DNA of 52,885 bases from an uncultured Pseudomonadales bacterium (GCA_964598125.1 CAZRAG010000003.1:1-52885); one strand, 5' to 3'. Counted from the stretch's first letter, positions 1 through 12,377 are shown. Program-made: numbers and translations. Notes: a model not told the origin generated them from the letters alone.

Positions 1-748
1 GAGCCATCTTGCGGTACTTTTCGACTTTCCGTTGAACCGAGCGGGCAGAGAGGCGCATTTTCTCACCATCATCAGTGGGATCGACTCCTTTGGCGTGGCG
101 GATAAATACGGGCGTCCATTCATCCGTTCGCTGACGTAGGTATTGATCCAGCCAGTGAGCCGCCACATCAGAGATAAACACCACTCGTAAACGCCGCCCC
201 TTTCCCATAACCCCAAATTCCTGAGTTTGCAGATTCACCTGCTCTCGGTCCAGACTGACTAATTCTGAGACCCGCAAACCAGTCGAAAACAAGAGTTCGA
301 GCATGGCCCGGTCACGTGAACCTTGAATGGTAGAAACATCTGGCATCTGCATGAGAACATTGACCTGTTCCGGGGTAATAAAGGTCATTTGGCGGGCCGA
401 AACTTTAGGAAGATCGATTTTCTCAGCAGCCAGAACAGGAACATCATTCTTGGTAAGCCATTTTAAAAATGCCCGTAAAGCAATGATGTAGTAGCTCTGT
501 GTGCGAATAGAAAGGTTCTCTCCCTTATCTGTGACAAAACGAGCCAGGTACAAGCGATACTTCTTTAAGACTTCTTGATCAAGCTGCTGAATTTGGTGGA
601 TGCCATGGCCTTTACACCAGGTGGTAAAACGGTTCAGATAAAGGGTATAGTCACGAATGGTCAAGCCGGAAAGGTTTCTTTCCACCTCGAGATGCTCGAG
701 GTATTCCTGGGTTTGTCGTTGAAGGGGGAGAGAGGAAAGTGCGGACAT
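1..748 (-). CDS. Tyrosine recombinase XerC/XerD/XerA family (C-terminus runs off left edge; absent from ORF track)
   Basis: Manual translation from ATG at 748: MSALSSLPLQRQTQEYLEHLEVERNLSGLTIRDY...RDRAMLELLFSTGLRVSELVSL...VMGKGRRLRVVF...LSARSVQRKVEKYRKMA. Shows SAM-like N-domain, catalytic Arg (TGLRVSEL) and Lys (GKG) motifs. Confidence 0.93.
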   Translation of the reverse strand, partial: MSALSSLPLQRQTQEYLEHLEVERNLSGLTIRDYTLYLNRFTTWCKGHGIHQIQQLDQEVLKKYRLYLARFVTDKGENLSIRTQSYYIIALRAFLKWLTKNDVPVLAAEKIDLPKVSARQMTFITPEQVNVLMQMPDVSTIQGSRDRAMLELLFSTGLRVSELVSLDREQVNLQTQEFGVMGKGRRLRVVFISDVAAHWLDQYLRQRTDEWTPVFIRHAKGVDPTDDGEKMRLSARSVQRKVEKYRKMA

Positions 749-765
749 ATGTGGATAACTCTCTC

Positions 766-778
766 ATTGTGCGACATA
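766..778. repeat. Xer half-site-like 13-mer ATTGTGCGACATA, copy 1
   Basis: Identical to 802-814; exact reverse complement of 1716-1728 (left arm of dif-like site); lies in the xer promoter region. Confidence 0.75.
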
Positions 779-801
779 CCATCAACGACTGTCAACTCGC
801 G

Positions 802-814
802 ATTGTGCGACATA
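802..814. repeat. Xer half-site-like 13-mer ATTGTGCGACATA, copy 2
   Basis: 13/13 direct repeat of 766-778, offset 36 bp. Confidence 0.75.
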
Positions 815-886
815 GGTCTTATTGCCGACTAGAAAGGGTGAGAGTATACTTTTGCTTGATACACCAGAAGTTATCGGGAGGATAGT

Positions 887-1273
887 ATGCCAAGTCCGAT
901 GAAAGAGGGAACATCTCCCCTGCTGACAACACCAATCGCTGAAGGACAGCGATACCAGCCAATGGAAACACTCCGACAGGCAATCGCTTATTATCTCGGT
1001 CTGTGGTCCGACATCACCGAACCCAACATCAACCCGAGTATTCGACAACAATCTCAAGGACTTATTCGCTTGCATGCCACTCAAATCGGCCGGATTCTAG
1101 CCAAGATGGAGGCGAATCACATAGGAAGCATGGAAAGTGTACTGACCTTCAGAAAAATATATGCCTATGCCGTAGCATTGTCCCGAGAAGCTGGTCTGGA
1201 TCAAGCCACCCAACACCAGCCAACCAATATCTATACGTCGCAAGTATATGGCCGAAGAGTTCGCAATCGTTGA
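887..1273 (+). CDS. Hypothetical protein (128 aa)
   Basis: GGGAGG Shine-Dalgarno 5 nt before ATG; no recognisable motif. Confidence 0.65.
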   Translation: MPSPMKEGTSPLLTTPIAEGQRYQPMETLRQAIAYYLGLWSDITEPNINPSIRQQSQGLIRLHATQIGRILAKMEANHIGSMESVLTFRKIYAYAVALSREAGLDQATQHQPTNIYTSQVYGRRVRNR

Positions 1274-1716
1274 TCTTTTCTTCCCATTCTTTTCTGATTC
1301 TTTGATTTCACCAAACCACCATCATAACCAACATAAACTTGTGAGCGTTTGACGACAATCAAAACCGGAATTTTTTGGGAAGTTGAGTGAGTAACGAGTC
1401 AAAATACCAGCTTAGCCAGGAAAAAGGCTTTGCTACCAGATACAAGCCCTTCTAAGGCCTCATTTTCGGCTTTTTCTGGCAAAAACGAGCAGTAGGTCAT
1501 ATACAAAGTCGATCAAAATAGATGAAAATAGACTATTTGGGCCATTTTCGGAAATATTTTCGGGTTTATCTACAAATTTGAAAAATGAAGTTGCGACCAT
1601 CTGTGGGGGAGCAAGTACCTGTTAGAAATAATGGGAAATAAAAGAAGAGAACAATGTCCGTGATTTTTTTGAATAGCAAAATAGCGAGCAGAGGCCCTCT
1701 CTGCCACATCTTTACT

Positions 1717-1744
1717 ATGTCGCACAATATACATTTTGCGACTT
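1717..1744. other. Candidate dif (Xer recombination) site
   Basis: ATGTCGCACAA-TATACA-TTTTGCGACTT: 11-6-11 layout, arms 9/11 inverted; spacer equals the reverse complement of the E. coli dif spacer TGTATA; in a gene-poor region about 1 kb from the Xer gene. Confidence 0.7.
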
Positions 1745-1850: not shown

Positions 1851-2135
1851 CTAGTATTCCGATTTCTTCTCATTTCTGAGGCATATGAATGAACCACTCT
1901 TATGGTCTCCCAAAACCAACTTGAGGGACTTCTCGAGATTGACCTTCGGGTTTTCTTGGCAAATTCGACCCTTTAGCCTGGTAGATAGCCCAAATATTCT
2001 TGCATATCCCAGAATCTCGGCCCTTGTGTAAGAGGTATGTATGCTTTTCACCAGATGTAGCCCTGGAAAAATTATCATGAAAACTGTCATTGAAACTGAT
2101 CTAACTATATCATTCTCTATCAAAAAGTTTTCCAC
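1851..2135 (-). CDS. Possible small hypothetical protein (94 aa)
   Basis: Only ORF filling this intergenic gap; no motif or clear RBS. Confidence 0.25.
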   Translation of the reverse strand: MENFLIENDIVRSVSMTVFMIIFPGLHLVKSIHTSYTRAEILGYARIFGLSTRLKGRICQENPKVNLEKSLKLVLGDHKSGSFICLRNEKKSEY

Positions 2136-2298
2136 ATTGTTTTCTTCTCTGCCACCAAATGAAACATAATAATAAAATATTATGGGACGTTAACCCTCAG
2201 GTCTCTCCCCCCTTCTCTCTTGAGATGGAATGAAAAAATTTGTCGGTCTATTGTGTTATTGTTCCTTATTTTCCCCTGGAAAAGCGACTTAAAATCTG

Positions 2299-8586: not shown

Positions 8587-9492
8587 TTAGTCGGTCAAAA
8601 ACGACAGGGATTTCTCAAGATCTTTTGCAACTGGAGCTTCAAATTCACGAACCGGCCCACCATTTGGGTATGCAAACGAAATTTTCCAGGCATGAAGCCA
8701 TTGACGCTCACACCATAGTTGGTCAATTCGGAACCGCTTCCGACCCACATAACGTTCATCACCAACAATGGGATGGTGCATGAACTGGAGATGCACGCGG
8801 ATCTGGTGGGTTCTGCCCGTCTTTGGCTGGAGTTCAACTAAGGAGAAATCCTGATAAATTCGTGATAATTGATGAATTCCTTTTGTTGATATTCCCTGCT
8901 CTTCTAAGTGCTTTTGCAACTTGGCAATATTCAGGCCAGAAAATTCCCGTTGCACCTGAAAAAAAGTTTTACTTGGCCGACCCTCACTCGAAACACTAAA
9001 TCTCTCCCTATCCTGAGGATGACGCCTAATACCAACCTCAATAATTCCCTTTTTATCTGTAAAATGCTCGTGTGTAAGAGCCAGGTACGTCTTTTGGATA
9101 GTTCTTGCCTGGAATTGCTCCATCATTCCATACATCATTGAAGGATTCTTGGCAAAAAGAATGAGGCCACTCGTATCTTTATCTAACCTATGAATCATTC
9201 CTGACCGTTGAGAAAAAATTTCATCCTCTGCCCTACCCTTTTTCCAGAGAGCATCATTTTCTAGATAGGTATCGATCCAATCCTGGAGCGTTACCTGTTT
9301 AACAGAATTGGCCCGATTAACGACAAGACCGGCAGGCTTATTTATGACCAAAAGATCCTGATCCTCAAAAATTATCCGAGGTTGCTCACCTGGTTCACAA
9401 CACACTCGTGATGGCCTTTTTTCTGACATACTCGTTATTATAAAGGGTTCATGCCTGGACATGTTCCTCATAAATGTACGAGCAAAGTCCAT
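8587..9492 (-). CDS. RluA/RluD family pseudouridine synthase
   Basis: INKPAGLVV, HRLDKDTSGL (catalytic Asp), TGRTHQIRVH, HPIVGD, LHA. Confidence 0.93.
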   Translation of the reverse strand: MDFARTFMRNMSRHEPFIITSMSEKRPSRVCCEPGEQPRIIFEDQDLLVINKPAGLVVNRANSVKQVTLQDWIDTYLENDALWKKGRAEDEIFSQRSGMIHRLDKDTSGLILFAKNPSMMYGMMEQFQARTIQKTYLALTHEHFTDKKGIIEVGIRRHPQDRERFSVSSEGRPSKTFFQVQREFSGLNIAKLQKHLEEQGISTKGIHQLSRIYQDFSLVELQPKTGRTHQIRVHLQFMHHPIVGDERYVGRKRFRIDQLWCERQWLHAWKISFAYPNGGPVREFEAPVAKDLEKSLSFLTD

Positions 9493-10734: not shown

Positions 10735-11527
10735 TTTTTCCCTTCTCTTTTTTCACAAAGAACAGTTGTCCTGATCGTACATAGAGTAACACACACCCAG
10801 ACAAAAACAGAATGGCGTGGAACAACTGGTTGATATCAAAATCAAAAATCCTCAAAAATGGATAGTCAACAAAGCCTAAGAGAACACCCATGAAACCGGT
10901 AATAATCAAAAATACAGAGAGCAAAAAGCCGCTTTTGGCTGTTCTCTTTTTACTTCTGTACCAGAGAAAGAAACGATATTTTGGCTCAGCCCACCAGAGG
11001 TAACGGAAGAGCAACAAAAAGCCCAAGCCAGCATACAGTTGAATGGGATGAGCCGGCTCAACCCTCTGGGGAAACAATATGCCAATGGGGAGCTGAGTAG
11101 AAACTCCTGCAGCAGCACCAATGACCAAACGTGAGAACCAGTACCAACTTAAGAACCAACTTAACACCAGAGCATAAAAATCCCATATTTCAAACATATC
11201 TCTTTTCATTTTGCGGGCCGACCACCCCATGAAAACAAAGGCCACAATGAGTCCGGCCGGAGCCCAGAGGCCAGGATAGTTCCAAAATTGGATAAAATTC
11301 CTGGGGATCAACATCTCCCATTCTCCCCGAACAACTATATAGGCCAATCGAGAGGCAACAAATGCTGCTAGGCCAGACAAAATCAAGCCATCAAAAACAT
11401 CCCAGAGATCAAAATGCTCTTCTTTGGCTTTTTTCCAAAAAAAGTAACCTGATCCAATCAAACCAATAAAAACAAATATTCCCGAAAGAATTGCCGGAAT
11501 CCAAGGGAGCTGCCACCACAGTTGCAT
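10697..11527 (-). CDS. lgt: Prolipoprotein diacylglyceryl transferase (divergent)
   Basis: Multi-TM; SRLAY, G-rich segments, HPIQLY; operon with lspA. Start ATG 11527 has TATACT 10 nt upstream. Confidence 0.75.
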   Translation of the reverse strand: MQLWWQLPWIPAILSGIFVFIGLIGSGYFFWKKAKEEHFDLWDVFDGLILSGLAAFVASRLAYIVVRGEWEMLIPRNFIQFWNYPGLWAPAGLIVAFVFMGWSARKMKRDMFEIWDFYALVLSWFLSWYWFSRLVIGAAAGVSTQLPIGILFPQRVEPAHPIQLYAGLGFLLLFRYLWWAEPKYRFFLWYRSKKRTAKSGFLLSVFLIITGFMGVLLGFVDYPFLRIFDFDINQLFHAILFLSGCVLLYVRSGQLFFVKKEKGKNEPPFISSAPGA

Positions 11528-11551: not shown

Positions 11552-11995
11552 GTGCTGTCGATTTCGCATTCATTAACCGGCGCTCTCGTTGCCACCACGT
11601 TGCATCCTCTTTTGGTCGTGCCGACCATTTTTGCCACCCATTATTTGGAAGACTGGATTCCACACTGGGATGTAGGCACCGGACTGAGTTCCGGCAAAAG
11701 AAAACGCCAAACAGCTATTCTCCTGGAACTTGGTGAACTTGTGATCACCGGAATACTCCTCTACTACTTTTTCCAAGTTGGCCACGAGGGTGTTGCTTGG
11801 GCTGCCTGGATTGGCGGTTTTATTGGCTTAGTTCCGGACTTTTTAGAAGCGCCCCGCAACTTTTTGCATTGGGAACCAAAAATTTTTAAACCCCTGAATA
11901 ATGTACATCAAGCTTTTCACCACTCTACCCCAAATATCTTGGTTGGTATGGCCCCCCAGCTCTTTCTCTGGTGGGCAATTTGGTGGTTGAGATAA
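11552..11995 (+). CDS. Membrane-bound metal-dependent hydrolase-like protein (YdjM-like)
   Basis: SHSLTG, HYLEDWIPH, PDFLE, HQAFHH metal-ligand pattern between TM helices; GTG start. Confidence 0.6.
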   Translation: MLSISHSLTGALVATTLHPLLVVPTIFATHYLEDWIPHWDVGTGLSSGKRKRQTAILLELGELVITGILLYYFFQVGHEGVAWAAWIGGFIGLVPDFLEAPRNFLHWEPKIFKPLNNVHQAFHHSTPNILVGMAPQLFLWWAIWWLR

Positions 11996-12017: not shown

Positions 12018-12377
12018 TTAAGACTTATTTATTATTGTGAGCTTACCCCTTTTTTCATGAAGAACGCCGCCAAAAATAAAGTCATACAAGTTATTTTCAG
12101 AGATTGGAACATCCACAAGCTCTACTTTCGGTAAGCCTCCTGCCATAACCACATCTCCAAGAAGTCTTCGAATACAGCTCACTTTTTCTAAGTTTTGAGA
12201 GGACTGATCTCCAAAATGAGCTAAAGATGAAATTGCCTCAGAAATTTGCAGTAAGCTTTCAAGTGTGAGTTGCCGTGTTACTGGATCAATACGAAAGAGA
12301 GCTCGCGCTTCTTGCTCTATTTTTCTTGAAAGCGTTTTCCGGTCTATAGTACTCTCATCAACTTCTGCGGCCATCAT
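12018..12377 (-). CDS. Hypothetical protein (119 aa)
   Basis: AAAGGAG SD before ATGATG. Confidence 0.7.
   Translation of the reverse strand: MMAAEVDESTIDRKTLSRKIEQEARALFRIDPVTRQLTLESLLQISEAISSLAHFGDQSSQNLEKVSCIRRLLGDVVMAGGLPKVELVDVPISENNLYDFIFGGVLHEKRGKLTIINKS

Follow-up and report, generated by a model that had tools for sequence, protein, structure and literature searches.

Xer recombination at a dif site is a near-universal answer to chromosome dimers. In the XerCD/dif systems of Escherichia coli and Bacillus subtilis, the site spans 28 bp in an 11-6-11 layout, an XerD-like enzyme acts on it together with the γ domain of FtsK, and purine-rich polar words, known as FtsK-orienting polar sequences (KOPS) and SpoIIIE recognition sequences (SRS), converge on it (PMC5357621, PMC2680272, PMC3384302). 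The FtsK-dependent XerS/difSL system of streptococci and lactococci joins site and recombinase gene in one terminus module, with difSL (31 bp with an 11-bp centre) lying immediately upstream of xerS, and its authors speculated that xerS might be autoregulated through binding at the site (Le Bourgeois et al. 2007, PMC1914069). A near-palindromic site served by one active recombinase is found in XerH/difH of Helicobacter and Campylobacter, in which difH lies near the gene for a larger, XerS-related protein, and in archaeal XerA/dif, which acts without FtsK (PMC5357621). Our literature search returned no description of a dif site, an Xer mode or promoter-borne arms for the Candidate Phyla Radiation (CPR), a large share of bacterial diversity. 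Here we analyse a 28-bp element at positions 1717–1744 of a 52,885-nucleotide stretch of DNA (GCA_964598125.1, CAZRAG010000003.1:1-52885; hereafter the window), together with the neighbouring gene for an XerD-like tyrosine recombinase, xer-1, and two lone copies of one arm of the element in the promoter of that gene. The explanation that best accounts for the locus, to which we give a probability of about 0.6, is that the element is a dif site, that Xer-1 is its recombinase and that the lone half-sites are operators of xer-1.

The window is the entire contig C3 of its own genome (G000), the assembly of which comprises 999,318 bases in 53 contigs. Read directly from the sequence, the 28-mer has an 11-6-11 geometry, ATGTCGCACAA-TATACA-TTTTGCGACTT, and its left arm matches the reverse complement of its right arm at 9 of 11 positions (Table 1). 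The 13-mer ATTGTGCGACATA occurs exactly three times, at 766–778 and 802–814 on the plus strand and at 1716–1728 on the minus strand, and a copy with two mismatches at 1733–1745 is the other arm of the site; across the whole assembly, no further copy with 0 or 1 mismatch was found. By chance, about 0.03 exact copies would be expected per genome, and the three that are seen all lie inside 1 kb. Common to them are the 13 bp alone, with flanks that differ, which indicates a protein-binding word and not duplicated DNA. The two promoter copies have no partner arm, as the positions at which one would lie match the arm consensus at 4 of 11 (750–760) and 2 of 11 (786–796) positions. A sequence-only reading of the window had described this same anatomy, from the 28-bp element with its 9/11 inverted arms to the exact, inverted and partnerless 13-bp recurrences, and the sequence bears it out in full.

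Table 1. Coordinates of the features discussed, numbered from the first nucleotide of the window
Feature	Position	Strand	Remarks
xer-1	2-748	-	First 249 codons of an XerD-like tyrosine recombinase; cut by the contig end
TTATCCACA	750-758	-	Matches the DnaA-box consensus at all nine positions; lies between xer ATG and proximal half-site
Proximal lone half-site, ATTGTGCGACATA	766-778	+	Contains the predicted -10 of xer, minus-strand CACAAT (771-766)
Predicted -35 of the xer promoter, TTGACA	790-795	-	From the promoter scan
Distal lone half-site, ATTGTGCGACATA	802-814	+	6 nt upstream of the -35
128-aa open reading frame without relatives	887-1273	+	Occupies the variable slot that separates dif from the xer promoter
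Non-coding blocks, xer side of dif	1468-1566	-	AAAAGCC (1474-1468), AACCCGAA (1566-1559)
Nearest left RGGGGAG	1605-1611	+	Points to dif
Terminator-like hairpin with T-run	1687-1705	-	Directly after dif on the minus strand
dif-type site	1717-1744		Arm ATGTCGCACAA (1717-1727), centre TATACA (1728-1733), arm TTTTGCGACTT (1734-1744)
Non-coding blocks, far side of dif	1945-2188	-	AAAACCCGAA (1954-1945), TGATATAGTTA (2112-2102), GTCCCATAAT (2188-2179, resembles a -10)
Nearest right RGGGGAG	2205-2211	-	Points to dif

The site is conserved well outside this genome. Nine genomes of the family share a 26-bp core, GTCGCAAAATGTATATTGTGCGACAT, without a single change, although their Xer proteins are only 60–74% identical and the flanking sequence has diverged. 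When up to two mismatches were allowed, the pattern GTCGCAAAA-N6-TTGTGCGAC was found in 138 of the 151 genomes of the order, at about one match per genome, whereas the reversed pattern, used as a control, matched only about six; the search of relatives that the sequence-only reading had proposed thus finds the site conserved order-wide. The 6-bp centre differs by family (TGTATA, GTATTA, GTTATA and GATACA) and the arms are kept, which is the pattern expected of a recombination (crossover) site. A small A/C asymmetry between the two arms is also kept throughout the order, as is the geometry typical of Xer/dif sites in general (about 28 bp, two 11-bp inverted arms and a 6–8-bp centre). The dif sequence of E. 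coli is identical to the 28-mer at 19 of 28 positions, including the TGTATA centre. No different, canonical dif, which would have counted against the proposal, was found elsewhere in G000: the consensus gave only two matches, each with three mismatches, and both were rejected, being inside open reading frames (ORFs). In about 25 genomes in which both could be located, the dif-type site lies upstream of xer-1, at a distance of 0.4–2.6 kb in nearly all of them; in G023, site and gene are 6.7 kb apart.

The recombinase next to the site has all the residues needed for catalysis. The gene runs off the end of contig C3 and continues on contig C22, the ends of the two contigs (positions 1–12 of each) overlapping by 12 bp with the frame kept, and the joined protein has 312 amino acids. 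The break between C3 and C22 in the assembly falls inside the xer gene; synteny with G002, a relative of the same genus, gives the contig order C1, C10, C22, C3. Xer-1 contains the Pfam Phage_integrase domain and a SAM-like N-terminal domain, and the solved structure closest to it is E. coli XerD (1a0p; E = 3.8e-35), which aligns end to end (residues 13–306) with R, K, HxxR, H and Y all in place. This R-K-H-R-H-Y set, the catalytic set of Xer-group tyrosine recombinases, is intact in 25 of 25 Xer-1 orthologues, and each of the 41 relatives encodes an orthologue. The bit scores of Xer-1 against the NCBIfam equivalog models are 246 for XerD (cut-off 330), 244 for XerC (335), 204.6 for XerA (NF040815; 220) and 132 for XerS (NF003462; 267). 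Because Xer-1 stays under every one of these cut-offs, we regard it as a Xer of its own lineage. Moreover, the genome encodes an FtsK γ domain (PF09397) that scores above its cut-off (C6, in a 722-aa frame); among 21 genomes, 20 have this domain.

To place the site on the chromosome, the sequence-only reading had proposed looking for an inflection of GC skew near position 1730. This proved to be the wrong test, as the sign of the skew never changes in this clade, only its level. Two closed relatives, G010 (followed over its whole chromosome) and G040 (sampled), keep an excess of G on one and the same strand around the entire chromosome; their skew of about +0.05 to +0.26 steps back and forth between two levels, one high and one low. 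In the window the skew is negative throughout (1–52885). A monotonic skew of this kind, with one G-rich strand, has been published for the Microgenomates order UBA1400, for which unidirectional replication was suggested (PMC7143001). Since no change of sign was available, level change-points, gene orientation, distance from dnaA and polar words were used instead. The change-point in G–C level and the site are 311 bp apart in G006 (on a contig of 240 kb); in G002 the distance is 5.7 kb. On the window's own scaffold (C1, C10, C22, C3), genes converge on the site, with 28 on the plus and 13 on the minus strand to its left and 16 plus and 38 minus to its right (the right-hand count uses ORFs of at least 120 aa), a bias close to the 41:19 or so that had been claimed for that side. 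The distance between dnaA and the site, measured in three closed genomes, is 37%, 46% and 42% of the circle. Gene orientation in G010 reaches its maximum over a plateau at 325–372 kb, within which the site falls (348.7 kb).

An unbiased scan for 7-mers that flip strand led to the same point. In G010, AGGGGAG ranked first (58 plus and 6 minus copies on the left, 13 plus and 59 minus on the right; p = 1e-18), its best split falling 329 bp from the site and those of related words within 2 kb; it was also the top 7-mer in G006, where it splits 445 bp from the site. The degenerate word RGGGGAG is distributed as 152 plus and 10 minus copies versus 35 plus and 98 minus in G010, the second arm being opposite to the 127 plus and 37 minus predicted from composition, and this flip holds in genes of either strand. 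In G040, seven plus copies end at 90,086 and six minus copies start at 90,526, a 440-bp bracket that contains the site (90,417–90,440). The genome in which dif-type site and recombinase gene lie 6.7 kb apart, G023, separates the two possible foci of the flip: the plus copy at 11,310 and the minus copy at 12,205 (L132) bracket the dif-like site at 11,859–11,882 and not xer. In total, five genomes (G010, G006, G002, G040 and G023) show a flip of RGGGGAG at the site, and on the window's own scaffold the word is found as 34 plus and 5 minus copies versus 1 plus and 4 minus (p = 0.004). By contrast, GGGNAGGG does not flip strand at the site; the KOPS words of E. coli and Lactococcus lactis and the SRS word of B. 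subtilis, which were also tried, lack a flip of the RGGGGAG kind here. We infer that RGGGGAG may serve as a KOPS-like guide word for FtsK.

For all its monotonic skew, this clade shows bipolarity in gene orientation, in skew level and in RGGGGAG polarity. Converging genes, the change-points in G006 and G002, the distance from dnaA and the RGGGGAG flips all place the site at the terminus, and 1717–1744 is very probably the dif site of the chromosome. Some features of the locus would also be left by an ordinary transcription factor with a palindromic operator or by an invertible switch, 778/814–1716, flipped by the recombinase, namely a palindrome with extra single copies in a divergent promoter region and exact 13–14-bp inverted repeats, 899–937 bp apart, beside a tyrosine recombinase gene. 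Either is extremely unlikely, given that there is one site per genome, with an 11-6-11 geometry and a variable centre, and that it sits at the polarity switch. A switch is further opposed by the lone arms, which lack the second arm that strand exchange needs, by the other families, in which the lone arm is direct and not inverted relative to the matching dif arm, and by the orientation of the segment, which is constant in all nine family genomes. A fim-like switch has two complete inverted sites and is found in both orientations, whereas here there are single arms and one orientation in nine genomes.

The two lone half-sites are in register with the predicted promoter of xer-1. The best match of the promoter scan within 600–2400 is TTGACA(795–790)-18-CACAAT(771–766), with 10 of 12 positions matching, and the proximal half-site lies 17 nt from the xer ATG. 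In G000 and four further genomes of its family (G001, G008, G006 and G003), the layout is TTGACA-N17/18-CA(C/G)AAT with the proximal arm as the −10, and the −35 is preceded, at a distance of 6–13 nt, by a second arm. Genomes of other families (G010, G019, G011, G014, G031 and G015) have the arm directly against a −35 resembling TTGAC(A/T). A lone half-site (at most one mismatch, on the xer-sense strand and no more than 520 nt upstream of xer) is present over or beside the predicted promoter in 19 of 25 genomes, as the sequence-only reading had anticipated for relatives, with one to three copies near xer. The chance expectation is 0.001 per genome, and only four others occur in 242 kb of flanking sequence. 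In G023, the half-site remains at the xer promoter, far from dif.

This layout fits occupancy of the promoter by Xer-1. Repression is the likely outcome where a half-site covers the −10, and the effect could be of either sign where only the edge of the −35 is touched; taken together, the promoter arrangements tilt the balance slightly towards autorepression of Xer-1 through its half-sites. The genome contains only 13 perfect copies of the 9-mer TTATCCACA, one of them next to the proximal half-site (Table 1). In G001 and G008 the proximal half-site is likewise followed by this 9-mer, and in G006 by a version of it with one mismatch. A reading of it as part of a DnaA-box cluster or origin was rejected, with only 13 perfect boxes genome-wide and no cluster.

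Two other roles for the half-sites were considered. They could have an architectural or landing function, keeping Xer monomers close to dif for loading of the synapse, for stopping FtsK or for topological selectivity of the kind seen with TnpI of Tn4430; the reuse of the same arm sequence, the fixed orientation relative to xer and the copy number of one to three are compatible with such a role. We consider it improbable, as the half-sites are in register with promoter hexamers, occur on one side of dif only, vary in their distance from dif between 0.3 and 6.7 kb and, in G023, stay by xer and not by dif. Alternatively, they could be scars of elements resembling integrative mobile elements exploiting Xer recombination (IMEX) that entered at dif by means of the host Xer, the lone arm being a degenerate hybrid site and the ORF in the slot between promoter and dif a remnant of cargo. 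Turnover of this slot is real: relatives have unrelated, non-homologous ORFs in it or leave it empty. Members of the family differ in slot length (359–1560 bp), and the slot is variable even inside the genus. The 128-aa ORF that fills it in the window has no Pfam, NCBIfam or PHROG match and no homologue in an index of 5.8 billion proteins. As the origin of the arms, however, integration is very unlikely, for the strand and promoter position of the half-sites are kept order-wide whatever the slot holds, the slot ORF matches no phage family, and integration leaves direct repeats, while in the family of G000 each lone arm has an orientation opposite to that of the dif arm it matches.

A second Xer-like gene, xer-2, lies outside the window (C8:9419–10273) and encodes a protein of 285 amino acids. 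Orthologues were found in about 37 of the 41 relatives, at 41–85% identity, and were not seen in G020, G037, G025 and G028. All 22 orthologues examined have Q, H, Y, E or S in place of the catalytic Lys and N in place of the first His, and retain both Arg, the second His and the Tyr. By its scores, Xer-2 resembles XerC, XerD and XerA, and neither paralogue reaches the XerC or XerD equivalog cut-off. No arm of the Xer-1 type was found near xer-2. The spacer of the xer-2 promoter contains a conserved motif of its own, ATATTATCGGACGTT (C8, about 9365–9380), which shares 8 of 12 positions with the Xer-1 arm and the reverse complement of which is a block on the far side of dif, AACGTCC(T/C)ATAATAT (2176–2192). 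No paired site built from this spacer motif was found, and a second palindromic site derived from the motif in the xer-2 promoter was rejected, since its matches occurred only at control level.

These properties bear on whether one or two recombinases act at dif. In a system like XerC/XerD, the unlinked Xer-2 would occupy one dif arm, probably the GCAAAA arm, as the partner of Xer-1, and would exchange strands poorly or not at all, or would serve architecture or control only. Such a partnership would agree with the wide conservation of Xer-2, with its scoring in the manner of XerC, XerD and XerA, with its retained residues and with the order-wide A/C asymmetry of the arms. We nevertheless judge it unlikely. 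The arms differ at only 1–2 of 11 positions, which leaves little for proteins about 25% identical to discriminate; every lone half-site is of the arm type found next to xer-1, with none near xer-2; the catalytic Lys and first His are missing from 22 of 22 orthologues; and no orthologue was seen in four relatives. A canonical XerC/XerD pair is likewise not what is found, given the lost residues of Xer-2, the near-equality of the arms and the linkage of xer-1 to dif. The question touches only the number of recombinases and is compatible with both the dif site and the operators. The single-Xer/dif system put forward in the sequence-only reading therefore stands in its dif-type behaviour and falls short in its strict single Xer. 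Judged by residues and gene order, there is one catalytically complete, dif-linked Xer and one conserved, atypical paralogue, so that 'single-Xer' is partly right.

Non-coding sequence on either side of the site is also conserved. The blocks on the xer side (Table 1) are identical in at least eight of the nine family genomes, amid diverged sequence. In the alignment, hairpins of differing sequence occupy the same place after dif in most relatives as the terminator-like hairpin does in the window. On the far side, AAAACCCGAA is followed by a hairpin of relative-specific sequence, and GTCCTATAAT is also among the conserved flanking blocks. A search of Rfam gave no match near dif (1200–2400, E up to 1), and at gathering thresholds the window yielded only two distant tRNAs. 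The flanking blocks could be part of an undescribed RNA, or accessory or promoter elements. As a genome-wide motif, AAACCCGAA was rejected, its 14 copies being mostly coding and without a common context. In eight relatives, a gene for a DUF5656 membrane protein ends directly at the dif module; in G000 only, a NUDIX hydrolase gene (2299–2829) lies between the two.

In the mechanism that we favour, in which dif, Xer-1 and the promoter half-sites form one system, two dif copies in a chromosome dimer would be synapsed and recombined by the neighbouring Xer-1, with one monomer on each 11-bp arm. FtsK, through its γ domain, probably follows RGGGGAG words that point at dif from both chromosome arms and, on reaching dif, probably switches recombination on. 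Lacking a partner arm, neither of the isolated arms at 766–778 and 802–814 can recombine. Both are probably operators, with Xer-1 monomers covering the −10 and flanking the −35 of TTGACA-N18-CACAAT, in which case the enzyme would limit its own synthesis.

Several observations pull in the other direction. In G000, total skew changes weakly at the site (−0.046 versus −0.069; p = 0.03) and its third-position component is unchanged (−0.105 versus −0.116), and the shift in skew level lies 40–100 kb from the site in G010 and 30–45 kb from it in G040. RGGGGAG is thin in the window alone, with eight words and no enrichment. In four of the 25 genomes (G005, G007, G021 and G038), there is no lone half-site with up to two mismatches within about 700 nt upstream of xer, and outside the family of G000 the half-site lies at about −37 to −48, a position that allows activation or repression. 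Finally, a second conserved Xer paralogue is present.

The new elements here are the RGGGGAG switch in five genomes, the natural experiment offered by G023, the promoter registers of the half-sites and the catalytic census of both paralogues. The 28-bp site and the candidate polar word provide a sequence marker of the terminus where GC skew fails, which makes the published suggestion of unidirectional replication for these lineages directly testable. One-armed operators, if such they are, would be a compact and tractable case of a housekeeping recombinase that regulates itself, and the paralogue without its catalytic lysine poses the question of what a 'dead' Xer does. At its most ambitious, the interpretation for this Microgenomates-type clade would be of a bipolar chromosome with RGGGGAG as its FtsK-orienting word and a CPR-specific dif, at which a catalytically complete, self-throttling XerD-like enzyme with one-armed operators works beside a conserved but crippled second Xer that is a non-cleaving partner or regulator. 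This composite picture is doubtful as a whole; if it holds, it would be a fourth kind of Xer system, common to a very large radiation of uncultured bacteria.

Among the described systems, XerCD/dif resembles this locus in the length and geometry of the site, in its XerD-like enzyme, in FtsK-γ and in a purine-rich polar word that converges on the site. It differs in that the arms here are near-identical, xer is linked to dif, the candidate word is RGGGGAG, and the catalytic Lys and one His are missing from the second paralogue. XerS/difSL shares the linkage of site and recombinase gene in a terminus module. However, the locus described here has a 6-bp centre in an 11-6-11 site about 1 kb from the gene, a variable slot of 0.4–2.6 kb before xer, lone arms on the promoter and an atypical second Xer, and Xer-1 is not an XerS, with 132 bits against the XerS model and a cut-off of 267. 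The near-palindromic site and single active recombinase recall XerH/difH and archaeal XerA/dif, and difH, too, is near its gene; XerH is a larger protein related to XerS, and XerA acts without FtsK, whereas here FtsK-γ and a polar word are present and Xer-1 remains below the XerA cut-off (204.6 versus 220). A parallel to the lone arms comes from the TnpI sites of Tn4430 and Tn5401, in which an inverted pair of motifs is the crossover core and extra single copies lie beside the recombinase promoter; in Tn5401, these extra copies repress tnpI-tnpA. In both cases, one motif serves twice. TnpI works in transposon resolution, at a site that packs all copies into about 120 bp, whereas the site described here is a housekeeping chromosomal one, up to kilobases away from the copies in the promoter.

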